Source: an uncultured Acidobacteriota bacterium (GTDB lineage: Bacteria; Acidobacteriota; Thermoanaerobaculia; Multivoradales; UBA5704). Taken from it: a DNA stretch of 64,000 nt. The notes under the pieces are model-generated. The model ran no database searches. It saw only the letters and a program-made list of their open reading frames with translations, and had not been told where the DNA came from. This document shows, one piece after another, positions 30,580 to 31,022 of this stretch (positions are counted from its first letter, which is position 1; every line of letters begins with the position of its first letter). The position numbers and the translations under genes were made by a program. Location of the stretch: the NCBI GenBank assembly GCA_963832495.1, contig CAWHUF010000005.1, positions 1,813,766-1,877,765 on the forward strand, in the 5' to 3' direction.

Positions 30580-31022
30580 AGCGTCAAATCCCACAATGAC
30601 TTCGACGGGTGCTCGTCGCCGGGGGTTAGGAGGACTCAAGAGGAATCAGGATGAGGGCGATCCCACGGGGCGCTGTTCGCCTTGTGTAAGCAGCCGTCCG
30701 GGATGTGTCTCCTCAAGCGGAAGAGTGCTGAAAGGCCACCGTTTTACACGTTGGGAGCTTCTCGATGTGTAGAGAGCCGGTTTCTTTACACCTTTTCTCC
30801 GGGAAAAAGTGTAAAGAGGCCTTGGTCGTACCTGAACGGGGGAGGAAGAGCGCTCTCCGGCCGCGGCCCCGCGTATTTCGGGAGAGGTTTTACACACTCA
30901 GGGAGAGAAAGTGTGTAGAACGTTGCGCTGAAGAGCCGTCAGGCGGGAGCTTTACACTTTTTCCCGAAGACTGTGTGTAAAACCCGGGCTGTTCTACACA
31001 TTCCGGGCGAGGAAATGTGTAT
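30580..31022. promoter_or_regulatory. array of at least 5 operator-like inverted repeats (TTTACAC-N13-20-GTGTAAA) upstream of the RTX gene
   Basis: Half-site pairs at 30743/30766, 30784/30809, 30888/30911, 30951/30974 and 30994/31015, with outlying halves at 30583/30683. The second and fourth units are also similar as direct repeats (ctttacac[c/t]tttt[c]cc.g...gtgtaaa). Spacing is irregular (41-104 bp). The same TTTTACACG 9-mer occurs 66 bp upstream of the FitA-like gene at 25503. Confidence 0.5.

Follow-up and report, generated by a model that had tools for sequence, protein, structure and literature searches.

A putative orphan array of VapB operator half-sites in an uncultured Acidobacteriota bacterium

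We analyzed a stretch of 64,000 nucleotides from the genome of an uncultured Acidobacteriota bacterium (GenBank assembly GCA_963832495.1, contig CAWHUF010000005.1, positions 1,813,766 to 1,877,765 of the forward strand), henceforth referred to as the window, and concentrated on a cluster of short AT-rich inverted repeats upstream of an RTX locus. An earlier reading of the letters alone (the original prediction) had reported at least five TTTACAC/GTGTAAA pairs in this region, and the array is real: five units lie at 30745-31021. To judge by sequence comparison, the array belongs to a family of phased operator arrays that is restricted to one lineage and not specific to RTX genes; many members stand apart from any toxin-antitoxin genes. 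We interpret the window array as an orphan array, that is, a copy without vapBC, of operator half-sites for VapB antitoxins of Pfam family PF09957, probably descended from an operator that was multiplied in this lineage. We put the probability of this interpretation at about 0.68.

Geometry of the array

The array is intergenic, between a minus-strand open reading frame (ORF) that starts at 30546 and a minus-strand ORF that ends at 31063. It covers 30684-31021 (a span of ~340 bp), with a lone half-site at 30575. Its elements, none of which is assigned a strand, are the following:

30745..30771, unit 1, TACAC-N17-GTGTA (ttTTACAC...GTGTAga)
30787..30813, unit 2, TACAC-N17-GTGTA, starting 42 bp after the start of unit 1
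30891..30917, unit 3, TACAC-N17-GTGTA
30953..30979, unit 4, TACAC-N17-GTGTA
30995..31021, unit 5, TACAC-N17-GTGTA, starting 42 bp after the start of unit 4
30684..30709, direct pair of GTGTA (30684) and GTGTC (30705, one mismatch), 21 bp apart, in lattice slots -3 and -2
30871..30875, degenerate half-site GCGTA, in lattice slot 6
30575..30579, lone TACAC half-site within CTTACACA, ~3 bp off the lattice

In each of the five units, GTGTA starts exactly 22 nt after the start of TACAC (at 30767, 30809, 30913, 30975 and 31017). The spacer, previously given as 13-20 bp, is instead constant, at N17 between the 5-mers and N15 between the 7-mers. The invariant core is the 5-mer TACAC/GTGTA rather than a 7-mer, and the outer two bases vary: the 7-mer pair TTTACAC/GTGTAAA proposed as the half-site is exact in units 2 and 4 only, with GTGTAGA in units 1 and 3 and TCTACAC/GTGTATT in unit 5. 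Two further details had to be corrected. The outer half-sites placed at 30583 and 30683 lie at 30575 (TACAC) and 30684 (GTGTA), and units 2 and 4, taken for near-identical direct repeats, are inverted copies of each other (84% complementary). The lone TACAC at 30575 is 29 nt upstream of the ATG (30546) of the flanking minus-strand ORF, which encodes 389 amino acids (aa).

As claimed at the outset, the repetition exceeds chance. TTTACAC occurs eight times in the window against an expectation of 0.54 (maximum of 2 in 100 shuffles), and six of the eight copies fall in 30743-30981. Two outlying copies reported at 25503, upstream of a FitA-like gene, and at about 11705 do exist (TTTACAC at 25505 and GTGTA at 11732), but each stands alone, with no second half-site at a distance of 20-22 bp. 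Successive units start 42, 104, 62 and 42 bp apart, and the 12 exact half-sites fit a single 20.9-bp period, equivalent to two helical turns (Rayleigh R 0.94; none of 2000 random placements scored as high). Eleven of the exact half-sites lie within 30684-31021, and the array has two more half-sites with one mismatch. A CRISPR array was considered and rejected, because conservation is limited to 5-6 bp, the orientation of the repeats alternates, and the units are unevenly spaced (42/62/104 bp).

Across arrays, the spacing of half-sites differs slightly with their arrangement: 22 bp from TACAC to GTGTA, 20 bp from GTGTA to TACAC, and 21 bp between direct repeats. These values become a uniform 21 bp if the center of the site is placed half a base pair 5' of the center of GTGTA; the spacing would therefore be independent of orientation. 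This is what would be expected of a two-fold symmetric protein bound every two turns on one face of the DNA.

Related arrays in other genomes

A wider motif search was run with a pattern of two adjacent units, TACAC-N17-GTGTA-N15-TACAC-N17-GTGTA (20 specified bases), on one genome for each of 185,579 species (596 Gb). By our estimate, ~0.5 matches are expected by chance. We found 25 loci, of which 24 are in six metagenome-assembled genomes (MAGs) of the Thermoanaerobaculaceae/Thermoanaerobaculia/Acidobacteriota. With this strict pattern a genome has up to 7 loci, so that copy number is at least 1-7, and the three best-sampled MAGs each have at least 5-7 conserved arrays. The sole match outside the Acidobacteriota (L024, 1865-1933, Prevotellaceae) falls within the coding sequence of a 301-aa ORF. 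The interior of each of its units is the reverse complement of the other, and the match is probably due to chance, in keeping with the ~0.5 expected. The pattern had no match in 2.9 million viral contigs, and we rejected a phage origin on this basis.

Every array locus has 7-14 half-sites separated by approximate multiples of 21 bp, over a span of 250-450 bp. Pooling 38 arrays gives a best period of 20.95 bp (mean R 0.964). Many arrays have the same architecture, with half-sites in one direction at one end (>>>), alternating half-sites in the middle (><), and a tail (<<<) of (a)atctGTGTA every 21 bp. Beyond the core, the sequence logo has two features only: an A-rich patch located 4-5 nt inward from each half-site and a bias towards T in the position that follows GTGTA. 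A blastn comparison of 29000-33000 of the window with all array loci detected no similarity: the half-sites and their geometry alone are common to them. No transposase, integrase or gene resembling a transposase associated with repetitive extragenic palindromes (REPs), known as RAYT, recurs beside the arrays. The null blastn result and the lack of a recurrent integrase or transposase led us to reject a larger mobile element.

We define the family by at least 7 half-sites on a ~20.9-bp lattice; the window array has 12 and shares its slot architecture with other arrays. It is colinear, almost without gaps, with four arrays of MAG BP_60 (L001, L015, L016 and L019) over ~280 bp. Units 1, 2, 4 and 5, a degenerate third unit and two tail slots coincide in this alignment, and one tail half-site is flipped. 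The GCGTA at 30871 falls in a unit that is also degenerate, TACAC...GTGGN, in the BP_60 arrays, and the slots of window units 4 and 5 are occupied there by direct GTGTA repeats (the tail). The gene to the left of the array also holds a comparable position: its start is 35 nt from unit 1 in L019 (vapBC, minus strand), 106 nt in L015 and 167 nt in L016, and the 389-aa/RTX operon of the window starts 199 nt from unit 1, at the end where L019 has vapBC. Although indirect, this shared position is the best argument that RTX expression may be under the control of the window array, through a captured promoter.

Such control cannot be general. The genes beside the arrays are unrelated to each other, and convergent genes enclose some of the arrays (L003, L025 and L002/L022), so that a plain promoter-operator role does not account for the family. 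The idea of an operator set dedicated to the RTX gene is not sustained, as equivalent arrays stand beside many unrelated genes.

Four copies in MAG CAWAUI (L007, L025, L023 and L008) show clear homology throughout the array. Compared with its paralogues L025, L023 and L008, L007 has an extra 42-bp unit at 6956-7130, and arrays therefore appear to grow by duplication of whole units. On the complete 8.78-Mb chromosome OY970330.1, seven array loci (L002, L003, L006, L010, L017, L018 and L020) are all located at 0.31-3.33 Mb, in mixed orientation, which is a possible positional bias.

Association with VapB antitoxins

Only one protein family recurs beside the arrays. Its members have 64 aa and begin with MRINVEVDEKLL or MRTNVDIDLDLL, and the gene that follows encodes a PIN-domain protein. 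The 64-aa protein matches Pfam PF09957 (VapB_antitoxin, ribbon-helix-helix (RHH)), and its VapC partner gives a weak PIN match, below the curated cut-off. Close homologues bear the public names 'type II toxin-antitoxin system VapB family antitoxin [Thermoanaerobaculia bacterium]' or 'Arc/MetJ family transcription regulator'. Intact vapB genes are present beside L008, L011, L013, L014 and L019, and vapB remnants are present beside L007 and L025.

A metagenome scan with the VapB alignment returned 80 loci. In the 400 bp that precede the ATG, each of the 13 metagenomic VapB homologues with 68-100% identity has 7-13 half-sites on the lattice, and two more VapB paralogues in MAG CAWAUI also have an upstream array, bringing the total to 15 of 15 close homologues. 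Distant homologues (33-51% identity, starting MRTNVEIDD..., at loci with a GC content of 0.40-0.75) provided 51 distinct upstream regions. In 38 of these, at least 2 half-sites lie within 60 nt of the ATG, a count reached by 0.4% of the control windows taken at these loci. Among the distant homologues, the modal arrangement is GTGTA-N16-TACAC, in the form ctatGTGTAt-N15-aTACACa at -38/-17, with a modal spacing of 21 bp. Most of the 12 regions without a half-site resemble, by eye, coding sequence upstream of the gene.

We also examined six plasmid operons annotated as 'VapB family antitoxin' and 'PIN domain nuclease'. A half-site pair was found in four of the six, all four proteobacterial. Operons with gatGTGTAta(a/g)...aTACACat before the ATG come from Spartinivicinus, Sphingobium, Burkholderia and two Komagataeibacter plasmids, and in plasmid operons the GTGTA overlaps a TATAAT-like -10 box. 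The sixth plasmid record, from Geminocystis, has one TACAC only.

The nearest solved relatives of the array-linked VapB are Mycobacterium tuberculosis VapB11 (6a7v, E 2.4e-4) and VapB15 (4chg), both matched by the VapB profile. The VapB N-terminus reads MR[TI]N[VI][ED][VI]D. In RHH proteins the N-terminal beta-strand is the element that reads DNA, and the proteins in which this strand is conserved are precisely those that share the motif. Because the motif tracks VapB in the arrays, in the distant homologues and in the plasmid operons, GTGTA/TACAC is most likely the autoregulatory operator half-site of the PF09957 VapB family. The half-sites of the window are identical in sequence to the motif upstream of vapB genes, and their spacings of 22, 20 and 21 bp match the two-turn pairing of ordinary vapB operators. 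The suggestion that an RHH protein is the regulator was thus right as to the family; the nearby FitA-like gene and the other small ORFs do not belong to it.

On contig CAWAUI010000004.1 of MAG CAWAUI, all three array-linked VapB paralogues are located beside CRISPR-Cas parts (L008, 110-297 and 1320-2300; L112, 1230-2695; L113, 1-5195). One paralogue follows a cas6-like gene. Another has cas1-cas2 and CRISPR repeats (37-nt repeat GTCGGAATTGACCAGATCAGTACGGTGGGATTGCGAC) on one side and a cas10/cmr2 gene on the other, and the third is between stretches of CRISPR repeats and has a vapC truncated to 41 aa.

Orphan arrays and conservation of half-sites

No trace of an array-linked vapB was found near 17 of the 24 genomic arrays or near the window array. 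The half-sites of orphan arrays are nevertheless conserved in related genomes while the spacers drift. When eight paralogous arrays were aligned, 40 of 50 half-site columns were invariant, compared to 10 of 232 other columns. Among the half-site blocks of the same eight paralogues that lie outside the search pattern, three of six are fully invariant and a fourth is invariant in 4 of 5 columns. The orthologous orphan pair L002/L022, whose flanking protein is 91% identical, is identical in 50 of 55 half-site columns versus 198 of 316 other columns. DNA beyond the orphan tails retains GTGTAttgggg..., a remnant resembling a ribosome-binding site (RBS) like that before vapB, which suggests that orphan arrays derive from vapB-linked arrays. 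Regulation, a decoy or depot function, or mere persistence as a relic may each describe the role of an orphan array.

The last of these would make the window array a functionless remainder of a vapBC promoter-operator, the vapBC genes having been deleted or replaced by the 389-aa/RTX genes. Signs of decay are consistent with it: the vapB remnants beside L007 (a frameshifted ORF of 56 aa) and L025 (only the first ~16 nt), the truncated vapC in L008, the RBS-like remnant in the orphan-tail flanks, and the failure to find a cognate VapB for the window genome. The window region itself has toxin-antitoxin fragments, an insertion sequence (IS) and an element resembling a miniature inverted-repeat transposable element (MITE). 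Nonetheless we consider this explanation unlikely. The 11 exact and 2 one-mismatch half-sites of the window array are still on the lattice, and neutral decay would not give conserved half-sites with nearly randomized spacers, as seen in the orphan arrays of related genomes.

Proposed model

Our preferred interpretation, that the window array consists of VapB operator half-sites, would work as follows. In ordinary vapB operons across bacteria, two half-sites at a distance of ~21 bp overlap the -10 region and the RBS, and such a pair would fit a VapB4C4 hetero-octamer that presents two RHH dimers about two turns apart. M. tuberculosis VapBC11 is a closed hetero-octamer with two RHH modules ~60 Å apart, comparable to the FitAB-DNA complex, and these modules have been proposed to read two inverted repeats (PMC6265470). 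The Shigella flexneri VapBC, which has a different fold, binds as octamers to two operator sites (PMC3384007). With RHH modules ~60 Å apart, a VapBC hetero-octamer would need half-sites paired at 20-22 bp. In one lineage of Thermoanaerobaculia/Acidobacteriota, the operator would have been multiplied into 7-14 half-sites on a 20.9-bp lattice, all on one side of the helix; the arrays precede the conserved vapBC of the lineage, and the copies at other loci without vapBC are the orphan arrays. VapB dimers, probably bridged by VapC dimers, would bind cooperatively along one face of ~340 bp. A lattice of half-sites would leave room for more than one octamer, or for VapB dimers joined into an open chain by VapC dimers, to coat one face of the DNA. 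At the window locus the complex may repress a leftward promoter that now serves the 389-aa/RTX operon, act as a sink for VapBC, or both. Physical binding, stoichiometry and the effect on RTX expression are inferred from these comparisons.

A broader role is conceivable. VapB, with or without VapC, could be a chromosome-wide DNA-coating factor, with orphan arrays nucleating VapB(C) filaments away from the toxin-antitoxin operon that serve as depots or decoys, setting the threshold for release of the PIN toxin, or as silencers of accessory genes (for example, a secreted-protein/RTX operon). We regard this extension as tentative and on balance doubtful.

Several observations weigh against reading the window array as a VapB operator. 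The array is not directly upstream of any vapB-vapC operon; adjacent to it are the 389-aa ORF and then the RTX ORF. We detected no VapB or VapC of the array-linked family in the 64-kb window by tblastn and a six-frame motif search, and no close VapB homologue was found in the protein database for the window genome or for the OY970330 chromosome, with its seven arrays. In both, the binder could be a distant PF09957 paralogue, could be on another contig, or could be absent. The operator assignment is comparative for every member of the family, and the evidence of selection comes from the arrays of other genomes and not from the window array itself. About half of the arrays are away from any gene start, and a promoter scan of 30300-31600 returned no sigma-70-like or promoter-like site. 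Finally, the window half-sites have A/G flanks (GTGTAAA, GTGTAGA), whereas GTGTAT dominates elsewhere.

Other explanations

It is improbable, more so than the relic, that the sites bind another regulator specific to the RTX operon, or DnaA. The array does sit upstream of the 389-aa/RTX operon, and in three of the four BP_60-type arrays the start of a leftward gene is 35-170 nt away from the unit-1 end, compared to 199 nt in the window. The occurrence of equivalent arrays beside unrelated genes and between convergent genes, however, argues against a regulator of RTX genes. As for DnaA, nTATACACa and TTTTACACA resemble DnaA boxes of the Escherichia coli consensus, which may not be that of this lineage, and some half-sites, for example TTTTACACA at units 3 and 4, fit the relaxed DnaA box TTWTNCACA by eye. 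A 21-bp lattice with inverted orientation is unusual for DnaA boxes. There is no switch in GC skew or replication gene nearby: the cumulative skew climbs monotonically across the window, and we noticed neither dnaA nor dnaN among the window ORFs. Also against both versions is the occurrence of the motif with VapB genes of different phyla and on plasmids. Several other known motifs were considered and appear unfit by spacing, orientation or gene context. These were TyrR boxes (TGTAAA-N6-TTTACA), GacA boxes, OmpR/CpxR sites, NtcA, NrdR boxes, ARG boxes, resolvase res sites, Tn7/Mu end repeats, and iterons.

The earlier alternative of tiny palindromic repeat elements, whether mobile or structural (resembling REPs, bacterial interspersed mosaic elements (BIMEs) or MITEs) or hairpins of a structured RNA, has hardly anything left to commend it. 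Units 2, 3 and 5 of the window do have extended palindromic arms, unit 2 being inside a near-perfect palindrome at 30783-30817 with 15-nt arms, and near-identical copies occur within one genome (L007, L025, L023 and L008 of CAWAUI). However, complementarity inside 94 units is no higher than in permuted controls, and direct-repeat half-sites cannot pair. For these two reasons the sites appear to act as duplex DNA and not as hairpins. No Rfam family matched over the array, similarity between the window array and the others is confined to the half-sites, transposase or RAYT-like genes do not recur nearby, and copy number is low for REP-like elements. The other possibility raised originally, multiple binding sites for a dimeric regulator, agrees with the fixed geometry, the helical phasing, the orientation-independent spacing and the lack of hairpin covariation.

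Comparison with known systems

We compared the arrays to systems with a similar layout. VapBC and FitAB operators likewise have short half-sites about two turns apart, located over the -10 region and RBS of vapB as in the ordinary members described here. The array-linked VapB shares family PF09957 with VapB11 and VapB15, and the ~60 Å between the modules fits the spacing. Known VapBC operators differ in having one or two sites (two for S. flexneri VapBC, PMC3384007), compared to 7-14 half-sites here, and many of our arrays, including that of the window, have no toxin-antitoxin genes alongside.

Among other antitoxins, CcdA2-CcdB2 of the ccd operon of plasmid F forms chains on roughly 120 bp, and hipBA has four operators. 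The likeness is that alternating antitoxin-toxin complexes could polymerize along a promoter with several short sites. These proteins belong to other families and their arrays are cis-regulatory only; we know of no orphan operator copies of ccd or hipBA around a chromosome. MqsA, which acts as a regulator at rpoS and csgD, is an example of an antitoxin that works at other loci, and operator-like palindromes away from the toxin-antitoxin operon similarly imply regulation in trans. The MqsA sites are single promoter palindromes, in contrast to the large phased arrays described here, which are often away from gene starts. Finally, parC of plasmid R1, sopC of F and 22-bp iterons are phased repeats bound cooperatively by small dimeric proteins, often of the RHH type. 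These centromeres and iterons share with our arrays many short sites at a fixed helical phase, on a lattice of ~21-22 bp or ~43 bp. They differ in that our arrays have no par or rep genes nearby, are chromosomal and present in several copies, and have a motif tied to an antitoxin family.

In the literature that we searched, we found no description of phased VapB-motif arrays detached from toxin-antitoxin genes, and no operator described for the PF09957 VapB family, including VapB11 and VapB15. GTGTA-N16-TACAC is thus a candidate operator motif for a widespread VapB family that includes these two M. tuberculosis proteins. Toxin-antitoxin operators normally comprise one or two sites that control their own operon only. 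If the arrays are bound as we propose, a toxin-antitoxin module would be able to build genome-wide binding platforms, and decoy titration, conditional cooperativity on long lattices, VapBC-DNA filaments and antitoxin control of unrelated genes would become testable. A coating-factor role, as depot/decoy or as silencer, would be an undescribed form of toxin-antitoxin regulation and of antitoxin co-option. For genome annotation, the family accounts for a conspicuous AT-rich repeat cluster in Thermoanaerobaculia genomes.

Genomic context of the array

The gene named RTX in the original prediction is in fact two ORFs in different frames, the 389-aa ORF and then an ORF with RTX nonapeptide repeats:

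29377..30546, minus strand, 389-aa ORF with RBS GGAGGAG and a signal-peptide-like N-terminus, adjoining the unit-1 end of the array
26495..29302, minus strand, ORF of RTX (HemolysinCabind) repeats, in a different frame from the 389-aa ORF and downstream of it

A frameshift and two separate genes are both possible explanations of the split. The 389-aa ORF has no Pfam match and its protein matched only itself among 5.8 billion proteins, so orthologous promoters could not be compared. It is a possible regulated target outside the array itself.

Within the intergenic region, an Rfam scan of 29500-32500 at E ≤ 1 returned no match in 30547-31062. The lone terminator predicted in 30300-31600 was discarded, as it is merely the junction of units 1 and 2. 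Sites for sigma-54 promoters and enhancer-binding proteins were also discarded after a by-eye search for GG-N10-GC that found no match.

To the right of the array, a small minus-strand ORF broken by an in-frame TGA is accompanied by a MITE-like palindrome and by a fragment that resembles an antitoxin. The small ORF (31063-31485, minus strand) consists of ORFs of 58 and 81 aa joined in frame by the TGA at 31311-31309. From its sequence it is a putative pseudogene or a case of read-through; the pair has no Pfam match, and its stop codon is 42 bp from unit 5. At 31694-31903, a ~210-bp self-complementary element is 76% identical over 213 nt to its own reverse complement and looks like a MITE. Its ends give sub-threshold matches to Acido-Lenti-1 (RF01687) at 31713-31744 (minus strand) and 31852-31899 (plus strand), and a comparable palindromic insertion is found to the right of the array in L002 (~5800-5985). 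The region as a whole is rich in toxin-antitoxin fragments. Further to the left, in the stretch 23639-25531, an IS5/DDE-type transposase (23639..25033) adjoins the FitA-like small ORF (minus strand, ATG at ~25438).

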